Sequence record: OZ413489.1
Strand: one strand, 5' to 3'
Length of the DNA: 64,000 bases
Source of the DNA: a phage
Shown here: positions 259 through 62,846 of the stretch, piece by piece
Numbering within the stretch: the stretch's first letter is position 1
Layout of the letters: each line of letters begins with the position of its first letter
The notes under the pieces: model-generated
Seen by the model: only the letters and a program-made list of their open reading frames with translations
What the model was told of the DNA's origin: nothing
The model's database searches: none
Translations under genes and position numbers: made by a program

Positions 259-282
259 CATTGTGGCTTCATAGAGTAATCT

Positions 283-441: not shown

Positions 442-525
442 GAATATGAGATGGTCCGATCCTACGTGAAAACGTATGGCTATGCACGTAATGGTGCGGG
501 GTAGCTTAACGACCTACCTGAACTA

Positions 526-8890: not shown

Positions 8891-9080
8891 GCTTAAATCC
8901 GCATGGAGCATTGCTGTGGGTGATGAGATCCGTATCCCCGGTGGGAAGACCATTATGAAGATATCTCGTATTGAGTACGAAGGTGACCGTGTATTCCACA
9001 TCTTCGCAGAAGATGGTCGAGAAATTTATATACAGGCAGGTTCTCACATTTATATCCGTAAGAAAGGGGACGACAAATGA
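8874..9080 (+). CDS. hypothetical protein
   Basis: 68-aa ORF. Confidence 0.5.
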   Translation: MVLMFKLKSAWSIAVGDEIRIPGGKTIMKISRIEYEGDRVFHIFAEDGREIYIQAGSHIYIRKKGDDK

Positions 9081-9406
9081 CAGAAATCATCATTTCAACT
9101 GCAGGGTATGTGTTCCTGACAATCATTGCACTGACTATTTTGGTGACAGTGTATGGGTTTGTTATCCTTCCTATCCTTGAGACATTTAGTTTGTGTCGGT
9201 GTTGGAGAAAAGCTTACGGTCCACAACCATGGAAGGACTGGCCCCACCTGGTGCGCTTAGCGTTCTCTTATGCTTACGATCACTCCAGTAGTGCATGCAT
9301 AACCGGATACCACGCCCACAACTGGAGCTGGGAAGGGTTGAGGAAATGGAATGTTACAAAGACCATACCTCTGCGCATGTACAAACCTAAAAACAAAGAC
9401 AACTGA
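9077..9406 (+). CDS. membrane protein (N-terminal TM helix)
   Basis: Hydrophobic N-terminus IISTAGYVFLTIIALTILVTVYGFVILPIL. Confidence 0.55.
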   Translation: MTEIIISTAGYVFLTIIALTILVTVYGFVILPILETFSLCRCWRKAYGPQPWKDWPHLVRLAFSYAYDHSSSACITGYHAHNWSWEGLRKWNVTKTIPLRMYKPKNKDN

Positions 9407-9419
9407 TACTTGAAAATTC

Positions 9420-9990
9420 TTGGCATATCAAGTATAAGGGGGATTTCTAAAATGGATTTCCTCCTTTTGATATTTCACCGGGCCGGATATTTTAAAATTC
9501 TTAGAAAATCAGAAAATGGATCGAAAACTAAAATGGATTTTTCAGAGTAGGCGCGACAAGCTGAATAACTCATCCTATCGTTTGCACCATATTCCAGGCC
9601 ACCATTATAGATTTCCCACACATGCTAACCTCCCTCTACTAGAACTTCCTCCACTTACCCTTGACCTTCTATGGTAACAATCTAACCGCTATCTTGAAGT
9701 TGCTGTGCAGCTTTCCAGGTACTCGATCTACTTTTCATTTCAGGGCTTGGATTTTCTGAAAATTTTTCTCGATAAATTTCTCAGTACTCGATCTGTTTTT
9801 CGTTTTCTGAATCGGATTTTCTGGAAATCGTTCCGGCTCTCGACCTGAAATTTTTGGGGACGAAATCGATTTTTCGTTTTCAGAAATGGATTTTTAAAAT
9901 TTCTATATGGGAATATTTTATGGGATACTGTTTTATAGGAAATTGTTACGGAGGGTAATTAGCGTGCTAATTAAATTTATTAAATGCGAG
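9420..9990. repeat. ORF-free region of degenerate direct repeats
   Basis: Recurring tactcgatct, ggattttctg, tttcgttttc, aaatggattt motifs; no ORF of 60 aa or more. Confidence 0.6.
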
Positions 9991-10004
9991 GAGTTCTCAT
10001 TTAG

Positions 10005-10225
10005 AATTTTGAATGATAATCATTCTCGTTTGCAGAATAACGGGCAGGCCCGGTGATTGTCTCCCGGCCCCTACTGCCCCGGCTTGTTATTATAGTATCA
10101 CACAGGACAAAGAAAGCAAGGATTTTTTGCATAAATTTTTAAATGATAATGATAACCGTTCTCATTTTATGCAGCGCCCATCCCCGGTGGTTGTCTCCCC
10201 CGTCACCGGTGCCTGCCGTCCTTTC
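10005..10225 (+). repeat. two tandem ~75-nt GC-rich units containing ccggtgRttgtctccc
   Basis: Unit 1 ~10005-10085, unit 2 ~10143-10225; each begins aatgataat and contains a GC hairpin. Confidence 0.6.
10045..10067. repeat. 23-nt inverted-repeat arm, left (ggcaggcccggtgattgtctccc)
   Basis: Exact reverse complement of 17486-17508. Confidence 0.75.
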
Positions 10226-10422
10226 GATAGGTATATCGTGCCACCTGGCGGGGCCGCTGTCAACACTTTTCAAAAAATTTTTCTAACCTGATGCGCTAAC
10301 CGCTGCAACCTGGCGGGGTCAGCCTGGCAGGACCTAACTGACCGGGTAGGAGAGAATGAAGGCTTGTAAACCTGGTGGGCCTATGCTACAGGATAGGTAA
10401 CAATTGAAGAGGAGGTACAAAA

Positions 10423-10590
10423 ATGAAAGGTAATATGATCCCCCTAGAAAATGTAGCTATTAATGACGCTGAGGCTATCGCCCTGGTTGAAAAGGCTATG
10501 GCGGGAGCGTTGGAACATAAAGAAGAGTACGAAAAATGGTGGTTAACCTGGCGGGGGCGGCAGGTGGATTCTATCATAAAAATAATTTAA
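10423..10590 (+). CDS. small hypothetical protein (55 aa)
   Basis: Strong RBS gaggagg; not in ORF track (<60 aa). Confidence 0.45.
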   Translation: MKGNMIPLENVAINDAEAIALVEKAMAGALEHKEEYEKWWLTWRGRQVDSIIKII

Positions 10591-10598
10591 AATAGTCG

Positions 10599-10626
10599 TT
10601 GACAACAAGGTTAATCATGGTATTAT
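10599..10626 (+). promoter_or_regulatory. sigma70-like promoter (aaatagtcgttgaca...tattat)
   Basis: Same upstream motif as promoter at 2010. Confidence 0.5.
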
Positions 10627-10676
10627 TACCCTACAAGGTGAACAACACCGCACTAACCAGTAAAGAGGATAAATTT

Positions 10677-10874
10677 ATGAACGCATACGGGATCAAAGTA
10701 CGTCGCAACACTCGCCAGGTGGTCACCAATCAAGTGATTTGCCGGGTGGATGTAACCATCAACAACGGGCAAGGCCTTTATAAATTTCGTCGCGGTCATA
10801 GCTATACCCTGCAACAGCTTAATCGTTGCGCCCTGACAAAAGGTCAGATCAACCATTGGTTTAATAAAAAATAA
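10677..10874 (+). CDS. hypothetical protein
   Basis: ATG 10677 after gagga RBS; track start 10599 lies in the promoter. Confidence 0.5.
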   Translation: MNAYGIKVRRNTRQVVTNQVICRVDVTINNGQGLYKFRRGHSYTLQQLNRCALTKGQINHWFNKK

Positions 10875-10877
10875 GTA

Positions 10878-10906
10878 TTGACATACAGTCCGACACCAAA
10901 TACACT
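10878..10906 (+). promoter_or_regulatory. sigma70-like promoter (ttgaca-17-tacact)
   Basis: Hexamers upstream of 10939 gene. Confidence 0.5.
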
Positions 10907-10938
10907 AAAAGCACAAAAGACACTAAGAGGATAAAATC

Positions 10939-11337
10939 ATGAAAACCACTACCTTTAATTTTGATAATGCAGACTTTTCTTTTTCTGATGTCAAGAACTG
11001 CCGCCGTGATCGTGGATTTTACAAGGCTTATAATCTGGTGGGCCTGGACGATGACAATAATTTGCACGAAGTAGCTGAGATCCGGTATTATGCCGCCGCC
11101 AGCGGTAACACTAACTACTGCGTTTTTTGGATACACGACAACAAGAACAATAAGTACGGTTATACTGGTGGCAAGGCTAGCGGTCACGGTTATGATAAAG
11201 CCAACGCTGCACTTGAAAGCGCATTAAATGCCATGGGAATCACTGCCGACGGCTGGATCTATGAAGAAGAGTTTTTGGCGGCACTTGCTGCCCACCTGGG
11301 CTATAAAAAGCACATTGTAACATGCGCCCACGAATAA
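10939..11337 (+). CDS. hypothetical protein
   Basis: 132-aa ORF, RBS aagagga. Confidence 0.6.
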   Translation: MKTTTFNFDNADFSFSDVKNCRRDRGFYKAYNLVGLDDDNNLHEVAEIRYYAAASGNTNYCVFWIHDNKNNKYGYTGGKASGHGYDKANAALESALNAMGITADGWIYEEEFLAALAAHLGYKKHIVTCAHE

Positions 11338-11347
11338 AAAAAAAATT

Positions 11348-11376
11348 ATTGACACGCTGCAAAATTCAAGTAAACT
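11348..11376 (+). promoter_or_regulatory. sigma70-like promoter (ttgaca-17-taaact)
   Basis: Hexamers upstream of 11425 gene. Confidence 0.5.
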
Positions 11377-11424
11377 AGGCACAAAAGGCGGGAATGTTTC
11401 CCGCCAACACGAAGGAAAAAGATC

Positions 11425-11820
11425 ATGAATAAAAACGTACGCCGCATCATGAACGAACTGGCAAACGATGAAAAAATTATTGATATGCATTTGGTCAACA
11501 TTTGCCGCCGTTGTGTAACATATAACAACCGCGCCGCAAAAGCGCGTGAGATGAACGCAAAAGGCACCTTAAAGCCCTTTCAGGTGGTTGTAAAATCTAT
11601 GACCAGTGCAGCAGGCCAGGCGCATGACCACAACAACGGGAGCACTAATATTGATCCATCTTACGTAATGAAACGGATCCGGACTTGCAAGAATAAAGAG
11701 CAGGTGTATAACGTCATAGATTGGCTGGACTCCCTGGGTGACGTGGTTTACAATAGGTTTTCTGCAGCTATTGAAATTCAGTTAGACAGGTTGGACGGGA
11801 AAGTACTGAAAACTTACTGA
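11425..11820 (+). CDS. hypothetical protein
   Basis: 131-aa ORF. Confidence 0.6.
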   Translation: MNKNVRRIMNELANDEKIIDMHLVNICRRCVTYNNRAAKAREMNAKGTLKPFQVVVKSMTSAAGQAHDHNNGSTNIDPSYVMKRIRTCKNKEQVYNVIDWLDSLGDVVYNRFSAAIEIQLDRLDGKVLKTY

Positions 11821-11822
11821 GT

Positions 11823-11868
11823 TTATTTTTAGATGGCCTTGACTCCAGGGCCATCAATAAAGTAAACT
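11823..11868 (+). promoter_or_regulatory. conserved promoter-stem-loop module, copy 1
   Basis: ttatttttagatggccttgactccagggccatcaataaagtaaact: 7-bp stem gatggcc/ggccatc enclosing ttgact. Confidence 0.6.
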
Positions 11869-11900
11869 AATCCCAGTTAAGCGAAAAAGGAGGCTTGAAG

Positions 11901-12020
11901 ATGAGCACTACACGCCAGCACACAAAGGTAACTATTATCGTTTGCATCATTGGTTATATCCTGGCGCAAATGTTGATGGGTAGCGCTAACGGTGTCGCAA
12001 AATTTTTCTTAAACTTTTAA
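11901..12020 (+). CDS. small hydrophobic peptide (39 aa)
   Basis: RBS aaaggagg; TM-like IIVCIIGYILAQMLMG; below ORF-track cutoff. Confidence 0.4.
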   Translation: MSTTRQHTKVTIIVCIIGYILAQMLMGSANGVAKFFLNF

Positions 12021-12049
12021 TTGACAAGCTAACTTAGATCAGTATACTA
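12021..12049 (+). promoter_or_regulatory. sigma70-like promoter (ttgaca-17-tatact)
   Basis: Hexamers upstream of 12098 gene. Confidence 0.55.
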
Positions 12050-12097
12050 AACACATAAACGGGAAAACTTCCCAGAACACCAAAAGGAGAAAACATT

Positions 12098-12448
12098 ATG
12101 AATACTTCCATCACTATGACCGCCGAAGAAAAAGCCCTGCAGATCGCCGCTCTGAAAAAACAGATTGCAGAACTTGAAGACAAGATCGACAATTTTGAAA
12201 TCGACGAAGACAAATACGACGATAAATATGATGAATGGTTGGACGAGATCTACGGCGAAATTATGATCGGAAACATTTCTTTTCTTCCGTCGCGTATCCT
12301 CAAGGAGCTAGATCCTATCGCTTACCGCTGCGGATTTAGCGACTACATCGACAGCCTGGATATTGAGGACGATGAAGAATACCAGGAATTGCAGACAGAG
12401 CTTGAAGAAGTGAAAGAAGAGCTTGCAGAACTGGAAGAAAACGAGTAA
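12098..12448 (+). CDS. highly acidic coiled-coil protein
   Basis: 116 aa, Asp/Glu-rich with heptad-like N-terminus. Confidence 0.6.
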   Translation: MNTSITMTAEEKALQIAALKKQIAELEDKIDNFEIDEDKYDDKYDEWLDEIYGEIMIGNISFLPSRILKELDPIAYRCGFSDYIDSLDIEDDEEYQELQTELEEVKEELAELEENE

Positions 12449-12450
12449 GA

Positions 12451-12496
12451 TTATTTTTAGATGGCCTTGACTCCAGGGCCATCAATAAAGTAAACT
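12451..12496 (+). promoter_or_regulatory. conserved promoter-stem-loop module, copy 2
   Basis: Identical to copy 1. Confidence 0.6.
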
Positions 12497-12537
12497 TTAT
12501 ACTGTTAACACTGAACTAATGCATAGGAGTTAAAACC

Positions 12538-12783
12538 ATGGCAGCACTAATCACCAAATATTATGCCCCTACCAACACCAAAAGCGCCCGTATCATGGTA
12601 AAAGGCTTCGGACGTAAAAAGGTTTACACTTGGGATTATTCCCTAGACATGGAAGACAACTACACCAACGCGATGACCGATTTTATTAATGAACTAAATA
12701 AGCAGATCTTAACCAATTATAAGGTGACCGACATCGCCTATGTTGGGGAAGGTGGGATCTGTTTTGTCGGTATTGTCAAATAA
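12538..12783 (+). CDS. hypothetical protein
   Basis: 81-aa ORF. Confidence 0.6.
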   Translation: MAALITKYYAPTNTKSARIMVKGFGRKKVYTWDYSLDMEDNYTNAMTDFINELNKQILTNYKVTDIAYVGEGGICFVGIVK

Positions 12784-12835
12784 GCTGTTTTTTCGGTGGT
12801 CCTGGTGGCAGGGCCATCTATAAAGATAGTTTATT
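12784..12835 (+). promoter_or_regulatory. diverged promoter-stem-loop module
   Basis: gtggtcctggtggcagggccatctataaagatag; same layout, different stem. Confidence 0.4.
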
Positions 12836-12858
12836 AACACCATGAAAGGAGAAAGTAC

Positions 12859-13212
12859 ATGATCAGCGGGGCTAGTTTTATTATTGGCGCTATTGCTACA
12901 GCTTTAATTGTAAACAAGATCCAGGATAAAAAGGAAAGAGGAAGTACCGCCCTTGCAGAATATCCATTTTGGACATTCAACGATAACGAAGATTATATTA
13001 TAAAGTATAAAAATAAAGAAGGTGACCAAGTAACACCGCGACCGATCCCGGCTTACAAGATGCAGGAAACACTATACCGCTTGGAGGCAGGGGGCGCAAA
13101 AATTGTGGACTTTTGGGGATACGATCACACAGATCAGGAAGTTATAAAGCGCCGTATCCGGGCTATTCAGGCCAATATTGAAGTTAGCAAGGGGGGAATA
13201 TATGAAGATTAA
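12859..13212 (+). CDS. membrane-anchored hypothetical protein
   Basis: N-terminal TM helix, 117 aa. Confidence 0.6.
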   Translation: MISGASFIIGAIATALIVNKIQDKKERGSTALAEYPFWTFNDNEDYIIKYKNKEGDQVTPRPIPAYKMQETLYRLEAGGAKIVDFWGYDHTDQEVIKRRIRAIQANIEVSKGGIYED

Positions 13213-13399
13213 TTTTGAGAAAATTGTAAAGCGATCTCATGATTCCGAAGAGCTGCCGGAACGCCGCCAGCGTAACAATAAACTGAATAAGCCAAAAAGA
13301 TTTGGGAAGATCTGGCGGAATCATTATGATCGTAAATTGCCGGGCCTCCTTTTGGAACGTGAACGGCAGGCGGAACGATACCGCCACAAAGGCAACTAA
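13202..13399 (+). CDS. small basic protein
   Basis: ATG 13202; Lys/Arg-rich. Confidence 0.4.
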   Translation: MKINFEKIVKRSHDSEELPERRQRNNKLNKPKRFGKIWRNHYDRKLPGLLLERERQAERYRHKGN

Positions 13400-13406
13400 C
13401 AACCAA

Positions 13407-13434
13407 CGCCCCGCCATCGTGCGGGGCTTTTTAT
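13407..13434 (+). terminator. intrinsic terminator
   Basis: gccccgc-loop-gcggggc followed by tttttatt. Confidence 0.65.
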
Positions 13435-13556
13435 TTCTACCCTACGAATAGCGCCCCTGGTTGGCCCCACAACGCCCTAAAAGCCCCCTACCCATGCAAT
13501 CCCATTTCTTAACCTGAAAACATCGTCAAAGGCTGTTTTAAAGCGTTAAAAATATT

Positions 13557-13584
13557 GTTGACATCTAAAATATTCTAGATATAC
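13557..13584 (+). promoter_or_regulatory. sigma70-like promoter (ttgaca-16-tatact)
   Basis: Hexamers upstream of 13621 gene. Confidence 0.55.
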
Positions 13585-13620
13585 TAATCACATCAAAGCG
13601 AGAAGTAAGGAGTAAACGCC

Positions 13621-13881
13621 ATGCGTAAATTAAAAAATTTTGATAAAGTTGATATTGTCCTGAATAATTTTTACTACTGCAATAACAAGGCCGTTTGGTG
13701 GCGTGATAGTTCCACCGATAAAGTCAAGGCGCGCTTTCTCCAGGGGCACTGGCAAGGCCGCCCAGTGATTAAAATCATGGGGCAATTGGTAGCGTTTAAA
13801 AATTGCCGCCGTGTTGATGACGTTGAAGAGATTTTAAACATTTTGCGCCACAATAATTTAAAAAATAGTGTTGACAAGTAA
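13621..13881 (+). CDS. hypothetical protein
   Basis: 86-aa ORF, RBS aaggag. Confidence 0.55.
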   Translation: MRKLKNFDKVDIVLNNFYYCNNKAVWWRDSSTDKVKARFLQGHWQGRPVIKIMGQLVAFKNCRRVDDVEEILNILRHNNLKNSVDK

Positions 13882-13898
13882 ATCTCAATAAGTATAAT
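13871..13898 (+). promoter_or_regulatory. sigma70-like promoter (ttgaca-16-tataat)
   Basis: Consensus hexamers; overlaps 3' end of previous ORF. Confidence 0.55.
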
Positions 13899-13955
13899 TA
13901 AAAACACAGGCGGGAAAACTTCCCGCCACTAACAAAGAAAACAGGAGAAAATATC

Positions 13956-14579
13956 ATGACCACCGTTAACATTACCACAGGTTACAATTTATCTTTCGAC
14001 GTGCTGACCGACGAACAAAAAGAAAAAGCCGTGGAAATGGTCCGCGAAAGAGAAGAACACAGCGGGGATAACTTTTTTGCAGAAAGTGTAATTGAGTACT
14101 ATAAAGAATATGTTTTTCCAGAGTACGGCCTTGAAGATACCGATGTACATTGGTCAGGCTTTTGGTGCCAGGGTGACGGCGCGTCAATCAGTGCGGAAAA
14201 CGTGGATTTAGAAAAATTCTTGCGTAAAGTCAAGTCTCTGACTAAATTCCGCTCAATTCGTCACTTGTTCGGCACAATGCACGATGGCGAGTTATCCGCA
14301 AGTGTTGAGCGTGATCCATATAGCCGCTATAGTCACGAAAACACTGTAAACGGATACATCGATACTACATGGCTAGACCTGACCACCAAACAAGAAAACA
14401 AAGTGGAAGATCTGGAAGAGCTGATCACCGAGACGGTACGGGAGTTATCCCGCAAGGTTTACGTAGACCTGGAGGAGGCCTATCTTGAACAATTCACCGC
14501 CGAAAACTTGATCGGCCTTATCGAGGCCAATGATTGGCGGTTTGATGTCGATGAACACGGTAAGATGACTTTTTCATAA
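13956..14579 (+). CDS. hypothetical protein
   Basis: 207-aa ORF. Confidence 0.65.
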   Translation: MTTVNITTGYNLSFDVLTDEQKEKAVEMVREREEHSGDNFFAESVIEYYKEYVFPEYGLEDTDVHWSGFWCQGDGASISAENVDLEKFLRKVKSLTKFRSIRHLFGTMHDGELSASVERDPYSRYSHENTVNGYIDTTWLDLTTKQENKVEDLEELITETVRELSRKVYVDLEEAYLEQFTAENLIGLIEANDWRFDVDEHGKMTFS

Positions 14580-14667
14580 ATAAAGTGTTGCAATAACCTA
14601 AAAACCTGCTATATTAAAACTCAAGGGGCAAGACGTTTGCCCCACACAAAACAAAGAGGTAAACATT

Positions 14668-15048
14668 ATGAAAAACACTACTAAAGCTATTGACACCGTT
14701 ATGTTTAACCTGGTTACATTCCGTGAAGATATGAAAGATCTTCCACGTGAAACAGTGTGCGATCACATTGAAAACTATCGCAAACTAATCAAAGAGTTGC
14801 CTTTAAAACGTGACCAGTATGCGGCTAACGCTATGCTTAACGCCATGATCAAAAAGATGATTCAGTGTGATTTAACTCTGGCCTATGATTATGCAGGTGG
14901 TCGTTTTGCAGTATACAATCAGCCCGTGCCTGGTATGAGCACCACCGAAGAATTGCACGCGTTAAATCTGAAACAAGATGTATGGGATAACATGCCCCGC
15001 GTGGTGGTGTGGGCAGAAAGCGGAAAGATTTACGGCGATAATTTTTAA
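14668..15048 (+). CDS. hypothetical protein
   Basis: 126-aa ORF. Confidence 0.6.
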   Translation: MKNTTKAIDTVMFNLVTFREDMKDLPRETVCDHIENYRKLIKELPLKRDQYAANAMLNAMIKKMIQCDLTLAYDYAGGRFAVYNQPVPGMSTTEELHALNLKQDVWDNMPRVVVWAESGKIYGDNF

Positions 15049-15112
15049 TCAGGTAACAGGCGGCATATTTGCCGCCTTATTGTTAAACAGAACTGCAAAA
15101 GAGGTACATAGA

Positions 15113-15484
15113 ATGGAATTTATTATTTTGGCTGTAGTAGTTGCCTTGTTCAACGCCTGGATCGCTGGCAAGATAGGTAGATCCGCTTTTCTATGGTTTG
15201 TTATATCTATTTTCCTGGGAGTGGTTGCAACTATTGTATTGGTTATCCTTGCAATTGTTGACAAGGGCGATAATAGAAAGGGTAAAGTGTTTTCCGACCT
15301 GTATGACGCACAAACGTTTGTCAACGCCTATTATAGTGATCTTCCAGTCTCCCTACGCTGCAGCCTGGCACAACAGGTTTTTGATGAGGCTAAAACCAGA
15401 GACCAAGCCCATGAGATATGTTTAACTGAAGCGGATCGCCTATTTGAGAGGAATAGAAAATATGTGGACCAGCCGTTTAAATAA
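15113..15484 (+). CDS. membrane protein (two TM helices)
   Basis: ATG 15113 after aagagg RBS; hydrophobic N-terminal half. Confidence 0.55.
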   Translation: MEFIILAVVVALFNAWIAGKIGRSAFLWFVISIFLGVVATIVLVILAIVDKGDNRKGKVFSDLYDAQTFVNAYYSDLPVSLRCSLAQQVFDEAKTRDQAHEICLTEADRLFERNRKYVDQPFK

Positions 15485-15683
15485 CGCCACGTTAATTAAT
15501 CCCTTTAGTGAAGATTTGAAGCCAGCCGCCTGGCGTGACGGATTCAATAACGAACGCTTTATTTTCAGGCCTGATCTTGAGGAATTTTATAACAATGGAT
15601 CGAACAACAGCGGAGATAATTTTTCTTGTGGTGTGCGTGGTGATAGGACTCCTGGGGGCCATTGTAAACCACGTCACTACTAA
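15462..15683 (+). CDS. hypothetical protein (alternative: overlapping frame 15535..15720 with a TM segment)
   Basis: Two overlapping frames; neither resolvable from sequence alone. Confidence 0.3.
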   Translation: MWTSRLNNATLINPFSEDLKPAAWRDGFNNERFIFRPDLEEFYNNGSNNSGDNFSCGVRGDRTPGGHCKPRHY

Positions 15684-15703
15684 CAGGAGGGAAGGGGGAG
15701 ACG

Positions 15704-15823
15704 ATGACAACCAAAGATAAGCCATGCGCTGATAAGGTGCGCCGTGTTATGGTATGGCTTGAGATTATCGCCCTTGAAATATTGTTAGGCGTAGGGATGT
15801 ACTTTATCGCTGTAAGTAACTAA
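15704..15823 (+). CDS. small membrane peptide (39 aa)
   Basis: RBS aggaggg; hydrophobic core; terminator immediately downstream. Confidence 0.4.
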   Translation: MTTKDKPCADKVRRVMVWLEIIALEILLGVGMYFIAVSN

Positions 15824-15825
15824 GA

Positions 15826-15856
15826 GCGGCCCCCGATCATGGGGGCCTATCTTTTA
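15826..15856 (+). terminator. intrinsic terminator
   Basis: ggccccc-gatcat-gggggcc followed by T-run. Confidence 0.65.
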
Positions 15857-15961
15857 AAAAATTTTTCTTCCGGGGTGTTGCAATCCGGTCCGGAATGTGG
15901 ATAATAACAATCAACGGGGAGCTAATCCCCACCACCACAAAAACCAGAAAGGAGAAACAAA

Positions 15962-16162
15962 ATGAGCAACAATATCCGCGTTATTAACTTCAAAAAAGAA
16001 GAAAAAATTGCCGTGCTGATTGACGGTCAAGAAATCTTCAAGGGCGACTATGAAGATCATCAAACGGCGATTAGTATCACTCGCGTGATTGGTTATCATA
16101 ATTTCTACCCCCAAGGCGCTGAGGCAGCAGTTAAACGAATCAAAGAGATTGTAGGCCTGTAA
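15962..16162 (+). CDS. hypothetical protein
   Basis: 66-aa ORF, RBS aaaggagaaa. Confidence 0.6.
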   Translation: MSNNIRVINFKKEEKIAVLIDGQEIFKGDYEDHQTAISITRVIGYHNFYPQGAEAAVKRIKEIVGL

Positions 16163-16165
16163 AAT

Positions 16166-16210
16166 TTATTTTTAGATGGCCTTGACTTCAGGGCCATCGA
16201 TAAAGTAAAT
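16166..16210 (+). promoter_or_regulatory. conserved promoter-stem-loop module, copy 3
   Basis: tttatttttagatggccttgacttcagggccatcgataaagtaaat. Confidence 0.6.
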
Positions 16211-16255
16211 TTAAACCCTGTTAAAATACCACGCAGTTAACAAGGAGTGATAGAC

Positions 16256-16555
16256 ATGTTTATCCAGGCTAATAATCTTTATTTCTTTGATGGTCAGATC
16301 GTAGATGGTGTGGAAGTGGAGATCACCGGGTGCCCTGGCGGTCAGGCTATGACTTTTCGGAATAATGCCTTTGATGATTCTCATATCGTTATAAGAATGG
16401 AAGTTACGAAGCTGGACGACAAGAAAACACTTATTGACTATTCTGTGAAAGATCATCCAGACTACCGCATGATCCATGGTGATTTGTGCATTGTTGACCG
16501 TGACAAGGTGGGCGGCATTGTGATCGCTATTGTGAACGATGTTTTCTCAAACTAA
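16256..16555 (+). CDS. hypothetical protein
   Basis: ATG 16256 after aaggag RBS. Confidence 0.6.
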   Translation: MFIQANNLYFFDGQIVDGVEVEITGCPGGQAMTFRNNAFDDSHIVIRMEVTKLDDKKTLIDYSVKDHPDYRMIHGDLCIVDRDKVGGIVIAIVNDVFSN

Positions 16556-16572
16556 TTTCAGCAGGCGATTTT

Positions 16573-16923
16573 ATGAAAGTCAAACTATATTACCTTAATG
16601 AGCTTAACCCCCTTGCCCAGGTCCGCGCCCTAGCTAATACCTTGATTTGTGAGAAATCTGTATATTGTGTTGAGCTTAACGCCATGCGTGAACGTCTCAA
16701 AGGTGGTTACTTTGACATCCATGCTGCAATCAACGGCCTGAATATGGAATTTATACGCTTACGTAACAGCCGCCGGAATCTGGCAAGAATGGAACAAGAT
16801 CCGGCCCACCTTCGTAAACTGGTTATTGAAAATCATCTGATGTTTAATGCCGAGGGGGATTATTACCATTTTCACCGCAAACGCTGGTACCGTGGCGGCA
16901 ATACAGGCAAGAATGCAAAATAA
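16573..16923 (+). CDS. hypothetical protein
   Basis: 116-aa ORF. Confidence 0.6.
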   Translation: MKVKLYYLNELNPLAQVRALANTLICEKSVYCVELNAMRERLKGGYFDIHAAINGLNMEFIRLRNSRRNLARMEQDPAHLRKLVIENHLMFNAEGDYYHFHRKRWYRGGNTGKNAK

Positions 16924-16957
16924 GGCCCCTAGCAGGGCCTGCAGCAATATAATCACA

Positions 16958-16992
16958 TAAAGGCCATGCGGTTGCATGGCCTTTATTATTTT
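16958..16992 (+). terminator. intrinsic terminator
   Basis: aggccatgc-ggtt-gcatggcct followed by ttattatttt. Confidence 0.6.
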
Positions 16993-17048
16993 GGCGTTAC
17001 AACGGCATACGGGGCGCTTAAAAAATTTTTAAAGAAGTACTTGCATCA

Positions 17049-17530
17049 TTCCCGACAATATGGATAATAAGAGTTGTCGAGGGGGAGGCCCCCAATCGTT
17101 GACCAGATAGATAGGAGTTAAAATCATGGCTATTGTTACCGCTGGCTATCTTCAAAGATGCGGAAGCAAAACAACGCCGGATCTCAATACATGAGATCAT
17201 CAACCTTAACGCTGGAGGCACACCATACCGCCCAGGACCTGGCCGTGAGATGGACAATACGCTAGCGATCCTGAAGATACGCCGTAAACGGTCCTCCCTT
17301 ACTCTGGACTCATTACACACAATGCAGCCTCCGTTCCAGGTGACCGGGAAACGGATCGCCAGGTCCTGGACAAAGGCCAATGATCGGACCGTATAAATAA
17401 AAGTGTTTTGGTACTGATTTTGGGGTTGACTTGTTCGGCCCCTTTTGCTATTCTTATTAAACGGGCGGCACTTGGGAACAGGGGGAGACAATCACCGGGC
17501 CTGCCTGTCATATAAGAACTATAAAAACCG
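17049..17530 (+). other. promoter-driven GC-rich leader region: candidate 22-aa leader ORF or structured RNA
   Basis: ttgcat-16-gataat promoter at 17049-17076; 22-aa ORF at 17126 with aggag RBS; both long ORFs here look non-protein-like. Confidence 0.35.
17486..17508. repeat. 23-nt inverted-repeat arm, right
   Basis: ggagacaatcaccgggcctgcc is the reverse complement of 10045-10067. Confidence 0.75.
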
Positions 17531-17559
17531 TTGACATCTGCCATGGGGTGGGGTAACAT
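17531..17559 (+). promoter_or_regulatory. sigma70-like promoter (ttgaca-17-taacat)
   Basis: Hexamers upstream of 17614 gene. Confidence 0.5.
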
Positions 17560-17613
17560 TTATCTTGAAGGGGCAAAAGTGCCCACACAACAACCAAGAG
17601 AGAGGAAAACACT

Positions 17614-17886
17614 ATGTCAAACTGGATTAATCAAGAAGTCGAATCACGTTTTAATGCTATTTGGGATCTCATCGAAAAAGAAGACGGCACATCAAGCCCC
17701 TACCTCAACAATTTGGAATTCCATTTTGTGGAAGCGATGAACGCAGAACATGATCACGAAGGTGGCGCGGATGAGTTCGCTAAAGGTTATGGCTTTAACA
17801 ATGCCAACGAAATGATCGAGGCGGTAGTACTCCAGGCTGAGGAAGATTATCAACTAAAAACGCTTGAATTCTGCCGCCGCAAGTAA
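17614..17886 (+). CDS. hypothetical protein
   Basis: 90-aa ORF, RBS agagagga. Confidence 0.6.
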   Translation: MSNWINQEVESRFNAIWDLIEKEDGTSSPYLNNLEFHFVEAMNAEHDHEGGADEFAKGYGFNNANEMIEAVVLQAEEDYQLKTLEFCRRK

Positions 17887-17946
17887 TAAGATAATGACAC
17901 GGGCCAAAAGGCCCACTAATCAGAACCGCACAAAGAGGTAAACATC

Positions 17947-18210
17947 ATGAAACGTCTTGATCAGCTCAAATTAGTTCAATATATGGCTTATCGTGTTCTT
18001 GAAGTCCAGAAAGGTAGCAAAAAAGAGGTTTGCGAGAAAGCTTATAAGATCTTCACTCGCAAAAAAGATGACTGGATGCTACGCCAGACTAAAAAGGCTG
18101 ACATCTTGGGGTACCTGGAAGAAGAGATCCGCCTTGAAGAGCAAGAAGAGATCCGCCGTAGTGAGGCAGATTATCAGGCAGCTTGGGAAAACTGGATGAG
18201 CAACAAATAA
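17947..18210 (+). CDS. hypothetical protein
   Basis: 87-aa ORF, RBS aagaggtaaa. Confidence 0.6.
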   Translation: MKRLDQLKLVQYMAYRVLEVQKGSKKEVCEKAYKIFTRKKDDWMLRQTKKADILGYLEEEIRLEEQEEIRRSEADYQAAWENWMSNK

Positions 18211-18228
18211 TACAACAAGGTGCACGGT

Positions 18229-18256
18229 CAGGGGCTTAAAGCCCCTTTCTTTTTGT
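18229..18256 (+). terminator. intrinsic terminator closing the + strand block
   Basis: aggggc-ttaaa-gcccct followed by ttctttttg. Confidence 0.65.
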
Positions 18257-18859
18257 CTCCTCTTTTCCTACCACAAATGGCCCCGCCTGGCAAATGGAAT
18301 AATCAACAAGCCAGCAATTAACCCCACTGTACAAACATACATATAAAATAACTATTGCATAATTTTTCATTGTGTGGTAGCAGTGCCATTTTTACACGTT
18401 TTTCCTTCCAAAATTGCACGTAATGCAGCATTTGCACAAAATTTAACCTGATGCATATCTTCAATAGCTTGTCAACAACTAAAAATCTTTATAAGTCATA
18501 CACTTACATAACTACAAAAACGTTTTCTACGTGAAAAATCGAGTATAACTATAGCCGCCAGATCTCAGAATTTACGTACGCTCGCCATTCTATAGCCTGC
18601 TAAGCATTTATTCCAACCATAGAATAACGGAATAGTCAATACCTGCATAAAATAATTATTCGTGTAAACTGCATAACATAAATCGGCCCAGGTGTCAACA
18701 TTTTTCGTAAACAGTCTGGAATTGTCACGTTAGGTTACCATAAGCAGAGAAATCTTTAGTCGTCTAATGTTTACTGTACATTACTATACTGACTGGAATC
18801 ATTAGATGACTAAGAGAAAGATAAGAAATAATTAATAATGTAATTATTTTACCTGTAAC

Positions 18860-19125
18860 AATAAGGCAACTATGCAAACGAATGGCATGGCGCGACGGAG
18901 TCGCGACATAATATAAAAGCAGTAACCATCACCCCCGTGATAGTTTGTCTGCAAACTATTAATCAGATCATAGTTGCCTTGTATTTAGTTAATCATGACA
19001 TGACAAGCAAGGCAACTATAGATCTGCTAATAGTTGCCCTGCTTTTATATTATGTCATGCTAATTATAATCAGTGCGATTATTGTCATGTATAATTATTG
19101 TCATGCAAACGAATGGCATGGCTGA
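18860..19125. repeat. array of aaggcaactat motifs in both orientations plus duplicated gcaaacgaatggcatggc
   Basis: Copies near 18863, 18970 (inverted), 19009, 19031 (inverted variant); 18-mer at 18874 and 19106; cgcgac-ggag-tcgcg palindrome. Confidence 0.6.
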
Positions 19126-19132
19126 TTATCGG

Positions 19133-19230
19133 TGTGTAAACAGTCAATCATGTAAATGGTTAGCATGTGAACAATCAGGAATGTAAACAATCCAGTGTGT
19201 AAACTAATAGGTGTGTAAAAGTGTCATGTT
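19133..19230. repeat. iteron-like array of six tgtaaac-type direct repeats
   Basis: gtgtgtaaacag, atgtaaatgg, atgtgaacaa, aatgtaaacaa, gtgtgtaaact, gtgtgtaaaag at 10-20 bp spacing. Confidence 0.55.
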
Positions 19231-19364
19231 GTGTCAGTTAGGTCACATTATGTCAGACAAGTTTTTCTCCTCTTTGTCAAGTGCTGCATGAAAAATTTAC
19301 AAGCTTGTATGGTAGCATTTTTGCGGCCCTGTTTACATTCAGTAATGTATGTATAATCCTTGTT

Positions 19365-19527
19365 GTGTGGGCGTTTAGACGTCTAGACGGTTGGAAGTCC
19401 ACAGGTCAATATCTAATCTATCGGCTGCTAACTATATCCCACACATGTGTGGGCGTTTAGACGTCTAGACGGTTGGAAGTCCACAGGTCAATATCTAATC
19501 TATCGGCTGCTAACTATATCCCACACA
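19365..19527 (+). repeat. perfect tandem duplication of an 81-bp unit (82-bp period)
   Basis: Unit gtgtgggcg...tagacgtcta...cccacaca twice; 7-bp terminal inverted repeat gtgtggg/cccacac; tataat hexamer at 19351-19356. Confidence 0.8.
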
Positions 19528-19789
19528 AATAGTAAGAAATATGATTGTTATATGCGTAAACTGTAACTCATGTTATCAATCCCTGTATGGATCGCCAGTG
19601 GTGCGCATAATAGGTATTATGTTAAATTGCCCGTAATGATAACAGTTCTCACAATGATAGGTATTCTCATTCATCCACACAAAATAGGTTGCAAATGTTG
19701 TGCCACTGTGTGAACGGCCTGGCCTATTAATTTCTCTCACTGCCTCGATATTTGAGAATTGTTATAAGAATGAGAAGTATTCCCATTCC

Positions 19790-20130
19790 GTCCGCCTGGC
19801 AGCACTCCTGTAGGTCCTGCAAGGACTCTAGCTGAAAGCTAGACCCTTCGGGCCTCCCTGTAGGTCAGGTCAAAATCGTGGTAGAATTGGGCCTGTTCAG
19901 ATATTTCTGGCTGACTCTTCAGGTCTGTGTGGGAAAAGCCAACCTCTCCGGCGGGGCAGGGGGTCATGACGGGAAAATTGCAGGTCAATTAAAAAATTTA
20001 CGTGGTGTATGAAGCGCTCTTCAGGTAAGGCATGTATTATGGGATGAAACCCTCTTCAGGCAATGATATTTGTGGGTGTGATATTTGCTGGAAAGCCAGA
20101 TATGACGGGACTCCCGGCGGGGATGGGGTA
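19790..20130. repeat. GC-rich segment with recurring short motifs
   Basis: ctcttcagg x3 (plus one at 20465), ccggcgggg x2, cctgtaggtc x2, atgacggg x2. Confidence 0.55.
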
Positions 20131-20823
20131 GTACAGACAGGGAAAATATGAGAATGTAGTTGGGGAAATTGATCAGACAGGTAGAGTATGGAATATGTTA
20201 CAAGTATGTTAAATATGGAGGTTGAATATCTGTAGGATTTGTGTGTAAAATCAAAGACTTAAGGGGTGTTGTGGTATTTTCTATAAATAATTCAAGTTTA
20301 ATAGGCAATATTTGTCTCTATCCGCTTTGTGTGGTAAACAGATTCAGATTAGATTGGTTTACAAGTGTATACATAATATACAAATTAAAGATACAAGAAA
20401 CCCCCCTCCCCCTTCGGCTACCATTCACCTTTTCCTCTGACTGGTACTTAAACACTTATTCAGACTCTTCAGGTTATCACCCATATATCATATGGCAGTG
20501 ACTGGTGTCCTCCGGCCCCTCTTTCGTCACCCGTCCGCTTCGCCATGCTAATGCCATAGCCAATGGTTCGGTTGTTCACTCTGTTCACTCAGGTGTATCT
20601 CCATACCCCTTCAAACCGAAGAGAACAGAAAACCCGAATTACTCGGTAAAAGAAAAGAGAAGAACTTAATTTTATCAGGATAGGCAAGAATGTCAAGGCA
20701 TGACTGCTCACTAAACAAGCAAACAGTCATGTGTGGAAGGTAAGTGATTGTGGTGGTGGGAAATTTAGTTGAAAGATGTGTTATAGGTGCTCCCAGCACT
20801 TTAGCCGGGTAGCTAATTGTGTG

Positions 20824-21039
20824 TCAGTCCAGTGGTTCATCACCTACTTCACTGAAATCAATGTTCATGGTCTCCTCCCAACCATCAATCTCAGCACCAG
20901 AGTAGAGATCTTTAGGACTTACTCCCAAAGCATCAGCAACAGAGTCCATATTTAACACCTCTGGCAGGTATGATTCATCGAATTCAAGGTAAATCAGGCC
21001 ACGAGTGTTGTCAGCTCCACCAAATATTTCTATCTTCAT
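20824..21039 (-). CDS. hypothetical acidic protein
   Basis: Start at MKIEIF after aggag RBS; last gene of minus block. Confidence 0.5.
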   Translation of the reverse strand: MKIEIFGGADNTRGLIYLEFDESYLPEVLNMDSVADALGVSPKDLYSGAEIDGWEETMNIDFSEVGDEPLD

Positions 21040-21159
21040 GAAATCTCCTCTGGGAATGAGAGTGTGAACAGGGTTTATACGTTCCAATGCGCTGGAATTA
21101 TGCACGTTTGCCTCTTCAGGCCATGCTTCAGCATGAGGAACCTGTGTGGGCTCGGTGCT

Positions 21160-21372
21160 TCATAGTCTACCACCCCTGAACTCTTCGTGCTCAGGCATAA
21201 TAGAGAACCAGATATCTACGATGTCTTCCCACGTCAGGTCATCAGCCTCAGGATCTACCTGGAGCGAAGATGAAGAATCTTCAGAATCGAAGTTTTCCTC
21301 TTGCACTGGCTCAGTCAAGGGACATATAGTCACTCCTTTGGATGTCTCTTCAGATGCATGTGTGTTTATCAT
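21160..21372 (-). CDS. hypothetical acidic protein
   Basis: 70-aa ORF; start overlaps stop of upstream small ORF. Confidence 0.35.
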   Translation of the reverse strand: MINTHASEETSKGVTICPLTEPVQEENFDSEDSSSSLQVDPEADDLTWEDIVDIWFSIMPEHEEFRGGRL

Positions 21373-21470
21373 GTTCCACCCGTGAGTATTCCGGCAACAG
21401 CTGCTATGGACGTAATGATCATCAGGATCACCACTAAAACTTCGGACAATGTTCTCATTGTGTACTCCAT
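21369..21470 (-). CDS. small membrane peptide (33 aa)
   Basis: Hydrophobic LVVILMIITSIAAVAGIL; ATGA coupling to next gene; no clear RBS. Confidence 0.25.
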   Translation of the reverse strand: MEYTMRTLSEVLVVILMIITSIAAVAGILTGGT

Positions 21471-21732
21471 ATTCTACAAACTATGTGTGGATACTATCAC
21501 TGGATCGGTAATGTGTCAACAGAAACGCCGCGAGGGTTTGGTTAAAATCCGAGCGTATGGTGATTTGGGTCAAAACGGACGTGCGTTCTCGCTACGCTCG
21601 AAATATGGAGTTGTTTGTAGGGAGCTCTTAAACGCTCTGTAATGAAATTAACTACCCAAGGTATGCAATCGTGCACCAGACAAAGAAAAGGACGCCACAG
21701 AGCGTCCTAGGTGTCTTAAATTTGATATTTTG

Positions 21733-22044
21733 CTATACCCACGAGGGCTTATCAAGGTTGGAGTAGCTGAAAGGTGTCAAAAGGTGACTGTCAAAATCTC
21801 TCAAACTATCCAAATCTTTTTCCTCGTCCTGACACCATCTGTGCCTACATTTGTTGTTGTAGTGCATGGAATGCATAGCGTTCTGCAACTTAACAGGCAC
21901 AAGTGATTCAGGAGTAGATAGTATTGTTGGGTATGCCAGAACCACCTCAAACAGTGGAAACACATCGAAACTAAAGTCTACCTCTGCAGAGGTTGATGGC
22001 ATATAGGAGTATTTAGCCGCCTTTGTAGACATAATCCACCTCAC
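21733..22044 (-). CDS. hypothetical protein
   Basis: 103-aa ORF. Confidence 0.55.
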   Translation of the reverse strand: MRWIMSTKAAKYSYMPSTSAEVDFSFDVFPLFEVVLAYPTILSTPESLVPVKLQNAMHSMHYNNKCRHRWCQDEEKDLDSLRDFDSHLLTPFSYSNLDKPSWV

Positions 22045-22373
22045 ACAGGTTTGATAATACCTTCACCGAATAGCTCTTCGTATCTAATCTTGTCCGGATC
22101 CCACTCCTGTATAATTTCGAAGACAATATCCAACCCAGGAACAATCACTTCTCCAGTGTCAAGCTTAGCAAGAACAAAACCGGAAGGTTGAATGGTTTCC
22201 CAGTTACGGCGATCAGAATAAAATACTTCGAAAATATCACCAACCTCAATCCGTTTCTGTTGCTCAAGATGCTGAAGGTTCTCTTTCATACGGATGCAGC
22301 GTATTTTTCGTGCAGGCCATAGACCACCTGCATCACGTTCATTCAATTCTTTTACAGTGATCGGTATACCCAT
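22041..22373 (-). CDS. hypothetical protein
   Basis: 110-aa ORF. Confidence 0.6.
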   Translation of the reverse strand: MGIPITVKELNERDAGGLWPARKIRCIRMKENLQHLEQQKRIEVGDIFEVFYSDRRNWETIQPSGFVLAKLDTGEVIVPGLDIVFEIIQEWDPDKIRYEELFGEGIIKPV

Positions 22374-22428
22374 CTCAAGTCTCCTTCATGGATAGTAAAA
22401 AGAGGGGCCTAAGCCCCCCTCTTTGTCA

Positions 22429-22734
22429 TTATTCTACAGAGCGTTTGAACAGAATGTCTGCCTCAGACATGTGCTCAACCTCTTCTTCGATTTTAGCTCG
22501 ACGTTTTTCAGCCTCATATCGAATATCGAACTCGGTAGCCACCAGAGATTTGATGAATTTAGGAGAATACAGATGATCCTGCTTCTCAACAAGAATGATA
22601 TCCTTGATGGCATCTTTCAAATCTTTAATCTGAAGCTGGAGTTCCACCAGTTCTTCAATTGTTTTGCGAAGGCGATCACGTTCTGCAGTGTCAGAAGGAA
22701 GAGAGGTGAACAGTTCAACTTTAGATTTAGCCAT
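22429..22734 (-). CDS. coiled-coil hypothetical protein
   Basis: 101-aa ORF, charged heptad-like sequence. Confidence 0.6.
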   Translation of the reverse strand: MAKSKVELFTSLPSDTAERDRLRKTIEELVELQLQIKDLKDAIKDIILVEKQDHLYSPKFIKSLVATEFDIRYEAEKRRAKIEEEVEHMSEADILFKRSVE

Positions 22735-62767: not shown

Positions 62768-62842
62768 GCCCTGTTAGCTTAGTGGATAAAGCAGCGGCCT
62801 TCTAAGCCGTTGACACTGGTTCGAGTCCAGTACGGGGTGCCA
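62768..62842 (+). tRNA. tRNA-Arg (anticodon UCU)
   Basis: Cloverleaf folded by hand; loop cttctaa; TTCGAGT T-loop; encoded CCA. Confidence 0.75.
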
Positions 62843-62846
62843 AATT

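Follow-up and report, generated by a model that had tools for sequence, protein, structure and literature searches.

Organisation of the array

Positions 10423-18210 of the phage sequence record OZ413489.1, analysed here as a window of 64,000 nucleotides (nt), hold an array of small genes interspersed with promoters, stem-loops and terminators. Twenty genes were defined, all on the plus strand (to which coordinates below refer unless stated), and a ribosome-binding site of the AGGAG or AAGAGG type lies 6-9 nt upstream of nearly all of them. Comparison with orthologues in seven relatives gave ratios of non-synonymous to synonymous substitution rates (dN/dS) of 0.00-0.19 for 18 of the 21 open reading frames (ORFs) tested, that is, for all but the first one, which has C-terminal indels, and the overlapping pair at 15462 and 15535. 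Together the ratios and the ribosome-binding sites show that these are real genes under purifying selection. Each of the 20 has a PHROG family of its own, and all of these families are of 'unknown function'. A preliminary description of this DNA, made from the letters alone, had marked the interval as an array of individually promoted small genes: this feature is confirmed, coordinates included (20 plus-strand genes with promoters and terminators). Its right boundary is natural, the unit ending there and giving way to a non-coding stretch; its left boundary is arbitrary, because promoter-rich small genes of similar kind continue leftward to window position 1.

A megablast search of the interval against a collection of 50,697 phage records returned 124 matching records, all of them Vequintavirus (rV5-like) and 80-99% identical at the best place. 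At least 80% of the query is covered in 90 of the 124, and the top match is vB_EcoM_10C2_SA_NWU (97.4%). The window is itself an rV5-like Vequintavirus genome. The interval is collinear with the seven relatives in alignments, and annotated relatives carry the same run of 25-29 genes labelled 'hypothetical protein'. Gene by gene it corresponds to ORFs 197 down to 165 of phage rV5, whose record shows them on the other strand: gene order and predicted promoters and terminators are shared, nucleotide identity is 92-93%, and the rV5 annotations are all hypothetical save for a match to Phage_1_1. The two differ in that the window is without rV5 ORFs ~169-176, ORF166, and ORF164 with its promoter, whereas rV5 is without a gene of 116 amino acids (aa) found in the window at 16573-16923. 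Kropinski et al. (2013; Virol J 10:76) assigned these rV5 ORFs to the transcription unit '10-1-238-164' and catalogued the sigma-70 promoters and rho-independent terminators of rV5; published sites that match window sites are P168, P185, P186, P192, P194, P195 and P195A, and t164, t177, t181 and t184. The array is thus already known: the 2013 study covered it in rV5, and over 120 sequenced phages carry it. We consider it probable that the interval is the distal part of a Vequintavirus accessory transcription unit (rV5 ORFs 197-165) dependent on host RNA polymerase.

Among the matching entries, 17 GenBank records named 'Campylobacter phage' are Vequintavirus genomes. One record, MG065661.1 (phage C9), carries the flag UNVERIFIED and shows ~93% identity to the array region; given the flag, and this degree of identity to a region of an E. 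coli phage, its host label is doubtful.

Promoters on the coding strand

Promoter-like sites were scored by their hexamer matches (out of 12) over the region 10291-18330, with 300 dinucleotide-preserving shuffles as control. The plus strand contains 28, 9 and 4 sigma-70-like sites at thresholds of at least 9, 10 and 11 matches, compared to 8.4, 1.3 (+/- 1.2) and 0.09 in the shuffles; the minus strand of the same region contains 5, 0 and 0. Well-placed sites have their -10 hexamer 32-57 nt upstream of a start codon. Across the seven relatives the -35 and -10 hexamers are fixed, whereas the spacers gain up to nine substitutions. Intergenic spacers separate the 20 genes into 16 mono- to tri-cistronic units, of which 12 have a site with at least 9 matches (seven of these with at least 10) and one a site with 8. 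The earlier statement that almost every gene has its own near-consensus promoter therefore reflects a signal far above chance but is overstated: only seven of the 16 units reach 10 of 12, and three units, along with the tightly packed genes, have none.

Three of these sites lie outside the cassette classes described below. The promoter at 10599..10626 (TTGACA-16-TATTAT, 11/12, with an extended -10 TG; rV5 P195A) serves the gene at 10677 and has an invariant -35 hexamer next to a spacer with 8-9 substitutions in relatives. The gene at 10939 is served by a site at 10878..10906 (TTGACA-17-TACACT, 10/12; rV5 P195), and that at 13621 by a site at 13558..13585 (TTGACA-16-TATACT, 11/12; rV5 P186) whose spacer has ~7 changes between conserved hexamers.

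Promoter-like sites are readily found in DNA of this composition: a simple scan at the loosest threshold gave 25 +/- 6 in shuffles of both strands, and the whole array could in principle be a chance pattern of AT-rich intergenic DNA combined with spurious small ORFs. We give this reading practically no credence. It is refuted by the strand-specific excess at strict thresholds, the conserved hexamers and the purifying selection on 18 ORFs, and the fixed distance to start codons and the PHROG family found for every gene also speak against it.

Promoter/stem-loop cassettes

In a typical cassette a sigma-70 promoter, preceded by an A-rich tract, is followed by a GC-rich stem-loop and then by a small ORF with a strong ribosome-binding site. 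Cassettes fall into two classes, A and B, which are not described in the 2013 rV5 paper.

Class B has seven members (starts 11349, 12021, 13871, 14588, 15878, 17531 and, weakly, 17864). In each an A-rich tract precedes TTGACA or TTGCAA, a spacer of 16-17 nt and the -10 hexamer, and a GC hairpin begins 3-6 nt past the point where the transcript is predicted to start; the folding energies of the leaders correspond to z-scores between -2.0 and -5.3. Two leaders of equal folding energy are those at 11349..11405 (TTGACA-16-TAAACT at 11349-11376, rV5 P194; hairpin GGCGGGAATGTTTCCCGCC at 11387-11405; minimum free energy (MFE) -14.6 kcal/mol, z -5.2) and at 13871..13927, where the promoter is perfect (TTGACA-16-TATAAT, 12/12, rV5 P185; hairpin GGCGGGAAAACTTCCCGCC at 13909-13927; MFE -14.6 kcal/mol, z -5.3). 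The cassette at 12021..12073 combines TTGACA-16-TATACT (11/12, rV5 P192) with hairpin GGGAAAACTTCCC at 12061-12073, and that at 17531..17584 combines TTGACA-17-TAACAT (10/12, rV5 P168) with hairpin GGGCAAAAGTGCCC at 17571-17584. Two cassettes use TTGCAA and score 9/12: at 14588..14643 (TTGCAA-16-TATATT with an extended -10 TG; hairpin GGGGCAAGACGTTTGCCCC at 14625-14643; MFE -12.6 kcal/mol, z -3.5) and at 15878..15930 (TTGCAA-16-GATAAT; hairpin GGGGAGCTAATCCCC at 15916-15930; MFE -9.5 kcal/mol, z -3.3). The weak, class B-like example at 17864..17914 has TTGAAT-17-TAAGAT (8/12) and hairpin GGGCCAAAAGGCCC at 17901-17914. Stem-loops at the 5' terminus stabilise E. coli mRNAs such as ompA, and by analogy the class B hairpin would most likely shield the 5' end of the mRNA from decay of the RNase E type.

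Class A is built differently: after a U-rich tract comes a hairpin of 10 bp (-17.8 kcal/mol) with the -35 hexamer TTGACT inside it, and the -10 hexamer TAAACT lies beyond. Copy 1 (11820..11868; repeat family D1, hairpin arms GATGGCCTTG/CAGGGCCATC), copy 2 (12448..12496; 98% identical to copy 1, serving the gene at 12538) and copy 3 (16163..16211; 92% identical to copy 1, serving the pair at 16256 and 16573) are 92-98% identical over 49 nt. The inverted-repeat pattern occurs four times in the window against an expectation of 0.08, the fourth occurrence being a degenerate copy at 12783..12831 that has lost its -35 hexamer (CTGGTG) and keeps the hairpin at equal energy by means of two G.U pairs. 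Since such pairs are possible only in RNA, the hairpin would appear to act in plus-strand RNA, and for the same reason we set aside the palindrome as an operator for a dimeric repressor. In read-through RNA it would most likely form an attenuator, or else a 3'-end or processing element; we offer this role as a guess. About three class A copies are present in each of 121 Vequintavirus records, and the class is absent from the other phages of the collection.

Both classes resemble the PeSL (promoter-early stem-loop) cassettes of the T4-like phages RB49 and phi1, which lie in hyperplastic regions and by recombination with one another shuffle small non-essential ORFs (Arbiol et al. 2010; Comeau et al. 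2014). A PeSL likewise joins a near-consensus sigma-70 promoter to a GC stem-loop between small non-essential ORFs, and its stem-loop may overlap the -35 or the -10 hexamer, or lie between them, upstream of the -35 or downstream of the -10 (Arbiol et al. 2010; Comeau et al. 2014). The class A stem-loop overlaps the -35 and that of class B is downstream of the -10, both defined PeSL positions. Indels between close relatives give a mixed picture, some lying at the repeats and others inside ORFs. The differences are that the window belongs to Vequintavirinae and not to a T4-like lineage, that its best-conserved cassette has only 3-4 copies, and that its largest deletions did not use cassettes. 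Our literature search found nothing that links PeSLs with rV5-like phages. Judged by sequence, PeSL-like promoter/stem-loop cassettes are here recognised in a phage that is not T4-like.

Terminators

The preliminary description had also noted that several genes have intrinsic terminators, and six canonical sites (hairpin plus T-run) were found on the plus strand. They lie at 13408..13436 (GCCCCGC-loop-GCGGGGC followed by TTTTTATTT), 15058..15084 (rV5 t184), 15828..15855 (rV5 t181), 16957..16992 (rV5 t177), 17422..17452 and 18228..18254 (rV5 t164), the last being a hybrid hairpin at a deletion point (see below). Several further 'terminator-like' matches proved to be hairpins in 5' leaders. Because the six terminators divide the array, nested and overlapping transcripts are expected.

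Gain and loss of gene blocks

All seven relatives carry DNA that is missing from the window. The largest block, 1,978-2,308 nt long (~8-9 genes, rV5 ORFs 169-176), is present in six of the seven, the exception being phage C9, and is missing in the window at 17139-17149. In the resulting scar (17126..17396) the first codons of one gene, whose ATG is at 17126, are joined out of frame to the 3' portion of a second gene; the junction has an 8-bp microhomology, CCGCTGGC, and what remains is a stub of 22 codons and a truncated ORF. An independent loss of ~1.66 kb from the same block, with a different junction and a 31-nt overlap, is seen in phage C9. Having been lost more than once, the ORF169-176 block is dispensable.

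A second deletion, at 18228-18247, removed 541-547 nt with promoter P164 and ORF164 (139 aa), all of which is present in seven of seven relatives. In the relatives ORF164 is flanked by two similar terminator hairpins, and the window hairpin at 18228-18254 is a hybrid of the two: as read from the junction, ORF164 was lost by recombination between two similar stem-loops, a PeSL-like event. Two further differences involve rV5: it lacks the 116-aa gene at 16573-16923, a gene-sized indel of 349 nt, and it contains an additional ORF166 whose borders are marked by a 36-nt repeat of the ribosome-binding-site region. Comparison of these genomes shows that the array gains and loses gene-sized blocks, with regulatory repeats at the breakpoints only some of the time.

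These events bear on whether the promoter/hairpin motifs are mainly modules of recombination or mobility, that is, selfish gene cassettes forming mini-circles of the kind proposed for PeSLs. The 49-nt class A cassette is repeated at 92-98% identity, PeSLs provide a precedent, the breakpoints of the ORF164 deletion lie within two stem-loops, and a 36-nt repeat delimits the ORF166 indel. However, the number of cassettes is fixed at ~3 in 121 genomes with none outside the genus, which gives no indication that they are spreading; selection acts on the hexamers; and the biggest deletions occurred via microhomology or gene paralogy. We regard this explanation as quite unlikely, and continue to read the motifs as parts of an accessory transcription unit served by host RNA polymerase.

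Timing of expression

If the array is such a unit, E. coli sigma-70 holoenzyme would read its promoters on incoming DNA with no phage factor needed. Recognition of this kind means that the array genes are probably expressed first, and their dispensable accessory products would presumably adjust the host cell early in infection. A similar arrangement is reported for Certrevirus, a genus of the same subfamily, in which sigma-70-like promoters with an A-rich upstream tract (AAAA(N3)TGTTGAC(N19)TATAAT, sigma-70-plus-UP) cluster in a region of short hypothetical ORFs termed the 'likely early gene region' (Buttimer et al. 2020). Certrevirus differs in being another genus with other gene families, and its study contains no stem-loop analysis. 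The characterisation of the array as early-type, individually promoted accessory genes thus fits its anatomy and the rV5 and Certrevirus literature, while the word 'early' is a deduction from promoters that occur genome-wide. From promoter sequence we infer that the genes are early.

Several points weigh against this interpretation. No promoter was detected for three of the 16 units (the gene at 10423, that at 12859 and the trio at 15113-15823). Consensus promoters are found over the whole genome, including units on the opposite strand, so that sigma-70 promoters alone are no proof of early expression, and our literature search found no transcription-timing or transcript-start data for any Vequintavirus. 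The class A hairpins lack a T-run and so are not canonical terminators, and the largest deletion in the window used microhomology inside ORFs and not a regulatory cassette. None of the array products has a demonstrated target.

The array might not be temporally early at all: its sigma-70 promoters could be active throughout infection or at a middle stage, making it a constitutive accessory region. When the window is divided into bins of 4 kb, most contain sites with at least 10 of 12 matches, located on whichever strand is coding in the unit concerned, and Kropinski et al. (2013), who found consensus promoters over the whole of rV5, considered that host polymerase is perhaps not reprogrammed as it is in T4. 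Against this, promoter density peaks in the small-ORF units, and rV5 has both a candidate Srd-like anti-sigma factor and separate T4-late-like motifs before its structural genes, which implies a temporal switch. A timing other than early is, in our judgement, unlikely, and early transcription by host polymerase is the reading retained in what follows.

Products with recognisable relatives

Acidic, basic and small membrane proteins had been predicted among the products, and isoelectric points (pI) and Kyte-Doolittle profiles confirm all three classes: four products are acidic (12098, 13956, 17614 and 16256), five are basic (10677, 13202, 13621, 16573 and 11425) and four are membrane proteins (11901, 12859, 15113 and 15704; 19-residue Kyte-Doolittle means of 1.9-3.1). 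Scans of the array products with Pfam, PHROGs, NCBIfam and PADLOC gave a single match above a curated cut-off (PF08200), and sequence and profile searches of the PDB with ten queries returned nothing at E<0.1. That the array has no recognisable function holds insofar as all products belong to PHROGs of unknown function; it does not hold for the two products considered next, a T7 gp1.1 homologue and a 207-aa member of a very large unnamed family.

The gp1.1 homologue is a basic protein of 65 aa (13202..13399; pI 10.8; rV5 ORF189; dN/dS 0.05) and the sole array product with a curated family: residues 2-42 match PF08200 (Phage_1_1) with 42.4 bits against a cut-off of 21 (E 9.5e-11). The rV5 table of Kropinski et al. 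(2013) already assigns Phage_1_1 to ORF189. Like it, gp1.1 of T7 is small and basic and its gene is among those read by host polymerase; unlike it, gp1.1 has ~42 aa. According to a remark in one paper, co-expression of T7 gp1.1 and Ocr shuts off host protein synthesis.

The 207-aa protein (13956..14579; rV5 ORF185) is acidic and bears the motif SGFWSQGDGAS...YSHENTV. A profile search of 1.84 billion cluster representatives gave 7,599 matches at E<=1e-3, of which 685 reach E<=1e-30; counted as clusters of 50% identity, the family has 7,599 members or more. Among the residues that never vary are G58, F69, Q72, G73, D74, G75, A76, H127 and Y169. Homologues occur in jumbo phages, in other phage contigs and in many bacterial phyla; a few matches are embedded in long proteins, one of which (polyvalent) has an N-terminal Fic/Doc domain. 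Neither the protein nor its relatives match Pfam, NCBIfam, PADLOC or, by sequence, the PDB, and a confident structural model found no solved structure in the PDB. Public labels as a 'YeeU-like antitoxin' (YeeU/CbeA) or 'antitoxin of toxin-antitoxin stability system' were rejected: neither the window protein and its relatives nor the plasmid homologue that bears such a name matches Pfam or NCBIfam, and there is no PDB match.

Bacterial homologues were also considered in their genomic context. On a Roseobacter plasmid a homologue lies beside H-NS, ssb, DUF932, two radC genes, DUF6878 and DUF6915. In a Pfam census of 150 neighbouring ORFs at 25 diverse bacterial loci, Strawberry-notch-type helicases lead (8), and ResIII, resolvases, integrases, ParB_N, DUF932, RadC and one ArdA are also found. 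Such neighbours are typical of islands for plasmid or integrative-element establishment or anti-restriction.

The other conspicuous acidic product is a 116-aa protein (12098..12448; pI 4.05; rV5 ORF192; dN/dS 0.13) in which 37 of 116 residues are acidic. A central core (residues ~40-85, motif SRILKELDPIAYRCGF) is conserved, while the coiled-coil acidic arms are variable; homologues span 67-151 aa and share the core ...YDEWLDE..G..F.PSRILKELDPIAYRCGF.DY... An AlphaFold2 (AF2) model with a predicted local distance difference test score (pLDDT) of 89.4 consists of two helices, a beta-hairpin, two short helices and a long C-terminal helix. Searched against the PDB, this model found no significant fold match (best prefoldin beta, E 1.7, template modelling (TM) score 0.41), and PDB sequence and profile searches were empty. 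Weak coiled-coil matches (GvpG, HalX and others) are low-complexity noise.

Do these products form an anti-defence island?

Of the whole window, the interval had been put forward as the likeliest place for host-takeover or anti-defence functions, no particular one being assigned. A more specific proposal is that the array is an anti-defence island of which one or more products, the acidic 116-aa and 207-aa proteins for example, would inhibit host immunity, for instance as DNA mimics directed at restriction enzymes. The block is driven by host promoters and makes small, acidic products, as is the case for Ocr and ArdA, which are themselves small, strongly acidic proteins encoded among genes under host-promoter control. 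The presence of array blocks differs from relative to relative, a pattern often seen with counter-defence genes. In bacteria, homologues of the 207-aa protein are found on islands of plasmids and integrative elements alongside ssb, H-NS, DUF932, RadC, ArdA, ParB_N and Strawberry-notch helicase, and the domain is also found with Fic/Doc; this neighbourhood is nonetheless guilt by association only.

In contrast, the 116-aa and 207-aa proteins have no sequence or fold similarity to Ocr or ArdA. By sequence no product matches ArdA, another Pfam anti-restriction family, a PADLOC model or a solved structure, and structure prediction with structural search, the check suggested in the preliminary description, gave no significant match of the 116-aa and 207-aa models to any fold in the PDB, where Ocr, ArdA and further solved inhibitors are represented. 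For the 116-aa protein in particular, the reading as an Ocr- or ArdA-type mimic was also rejected, there being no hidden Markov model (HMM) or fold match, and conservation resting with the non-acidic core and not with the charge pattern. Finally, Vequintavirinae proved in the BASEL study to be 'exceptionally susceptible' to restriction-modification systems, which weighs against a classic anti-restriction activity of the acidic proteins. A dedicated anti-defence island is, we think, rather improbable. More broadly, a role in host takeover or anti-defence is weakly supported, the gene context of the 207-aa family being its only positive hint, one that works by association.

Our own suggestion joins two elements: that the 207-aa protein is the phage member of a huge unnamed family, which may act on entry as an enzyme or inhibitor against a host function, and that PeSL-type cassettes extend beyond T4-like phages. 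Taken jointly, these are advanced tentatively, as a possibility about which we have more doubt than confidence.

Remaining genes of the array

The first gene (10423..10590; 55 aa; ~rV5 ORF197) has the ribosome-binding site GAGGAGG, belongs to PHROG 21957 (E 8e-28) and has no upstream promoter. Its C-terminus varies between relatives, and no dN/dS is given because the seven relatives contain no ungapped intact orthologue. It is followed by a basic 65-aa protein (10677..10874; pI 11.0; PHROG 7119; dN/dS 0.16) and by a 132-aa protein (10939..11337; rV5 ORF195; PHROG 7028; dN/dS 0.05) that matches nothing in Pfam, NCBIfam or the PDB. The label 'acetyltransferase' on a homologue of the latter (JLBYU08 record) was rejected, there being no Pfam or NCBIfam match and a best PDB E-value of 0.59. 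Next come a basic 131-aa protein (11425..11820; rV5 ORF194; dN/dS 0.07; no PDB or Pfam match) and a 39-aa membrane peptide (11901..12020; rV5 ORF193; dN/dS 0.08) with a 19-residue Kyte-Doolittle maximum of 2.08, to which the rV5 table gives one transmembrane domain.

Downstream of the acidic 116-aa gene lie an 81-aa gene (12538..12783; rV5 ORF191; dN/dS 0.06; no PDB match) and a 117-aa gene whose product has an N-terminal transmembrane segment (12859..13212; rV5 ORF190; Kyte-Doolittle 1.88 at residue 1; dN/dS 0.08; PHROG 12734). A basic 86-aa product (13621..13881; rV5 ORF186; dN/dS 0.08) precedes the 207-aa protein, and a 126-aa product follows it (14668..15048; rV5 ORF184; dN/dS 0.04; no PDB match), for which the record of a relative notes similarity to Phi92_gp227.

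The tight three-gene unit at 15113..15823, which has no promoter of its own, encodes a 123-aa membrane protein (15113-15484), a 73-aa protein (15462-15683) and a 39-aa membrane peptide (15704-15823). The two membrane products have Kyte-Doolittle values of 3.13 and 2.15, and dN/dS for the three genes is 0.07, 0.56 and 0.12. The 73-aa gene is overlapped in an alternative frame by an ORF at 15535-15720, intact in seven of seven relatives, that starts with GTG and encodes 61 aa with a strong hydrophobic segment; this ORF has no PHROG family, and dN/dS is uninformative for both overlapping frames (0.56 and 0.76).

Towards the right end are a 66-aa gene (15962..16162; rV5 ORF179; dN 0.000, dS 0.138), an acidic 99-aa gene (16256..16555; dN/dS 0.19; no PDB match), the basic 116-aa gene that rV5 is without (16573..16923; dN/dS 0.12; no PDB match), an acidic 90-aa gene (17614..17886; rV5 ORF167; dN/dS 0.05) and an 87-aa gene (17947..18210; rV5 ORF165; dN/dS 0.01). 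Homologues of the 90-aa product are scattered in unrelated phages of 45-51 kb and 143 kb, and an RB49 homologue has been noted for rV5. On the 87-aa family, the label 'DNA translocase FtsK' (one record) has no HMM support; 'phosphonoacetaldehyde hydrolase', 'GvpG' and SbcCD ATPase are further public labels on array homologues that lack HMM or fold support.

Features outside the genes of the array

The ~1-kb non-coding stretch upstream of the array contains one site that agrees with the E. coli Fur-box consensus at 16 of 19 positions (0.01 expected) and a second, weaker match recognised by eye; the two Fur-box-like sites are at 10016-10034 and 10145-10163. A 17-nt motif, CCCGGTGRTTGTCTCCC, follows each after ~20-25 nt (10049-10065 and 10183-10199), and a third copy lies inverted inside the array (17483-17499, minus strand), just upstream of P168. 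The region of the Fur-box-like sites and CCCGGTGRTTGTCTCCC has no Rfam match and no consistent fold, and the sites may possibly mark an iron-responsive regulatory site or a small RNA. At permissive thresholds Rfam returned a single chance-level match over 9000-22500.

Further upstream, in a region with no conserved ORF, three direct repeats of ~47-57 nt (9709-9894) are spaced by 65-74 nt and are 70-74% identical. Their layout is iteron-like and could represent a replication origin or a protein-binding array. Downstream of the array, in the stretch shown as a 'non-coding' box on the rV5 map, 19364-19527 is a perfect tandem duplication of an 82-bp unit and lies near the turn of the cumulative GC skew. 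Elsewhere in the window are a group I intron match at 243-478 (plus strand; 64.7 bits in Rfam against a gathering threshold of 50), and a cluster of seven tRNA genes at 62768-63580, in which ARAGORN gives one tRNA-like gene of 99 nt (63237-63335) a four-base anticodon 'atcc' and Rfam gives it only 35.5 bits.

Significance

As a genome feature the array is ordinary. Added here are more exact counts of its promoters and terminators, the recognition of PeSL-like cassettes, two deletions specific to this genome, the rejection of misleading labels, and the membership of the 207-aa protein in its family. For a phage group that is widely used in therapy and biocontrol, the array constitutes a gene list for functional screens: its genes are short, strongly conserved and dispensable, and come as ready-made expression cassettes, while the natural deletions in the window and in phage C9 mark blocks that can be lost. 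The 207-aa family is abundant in phages and mobile elements, and a function for it would annotate thousands of genes.

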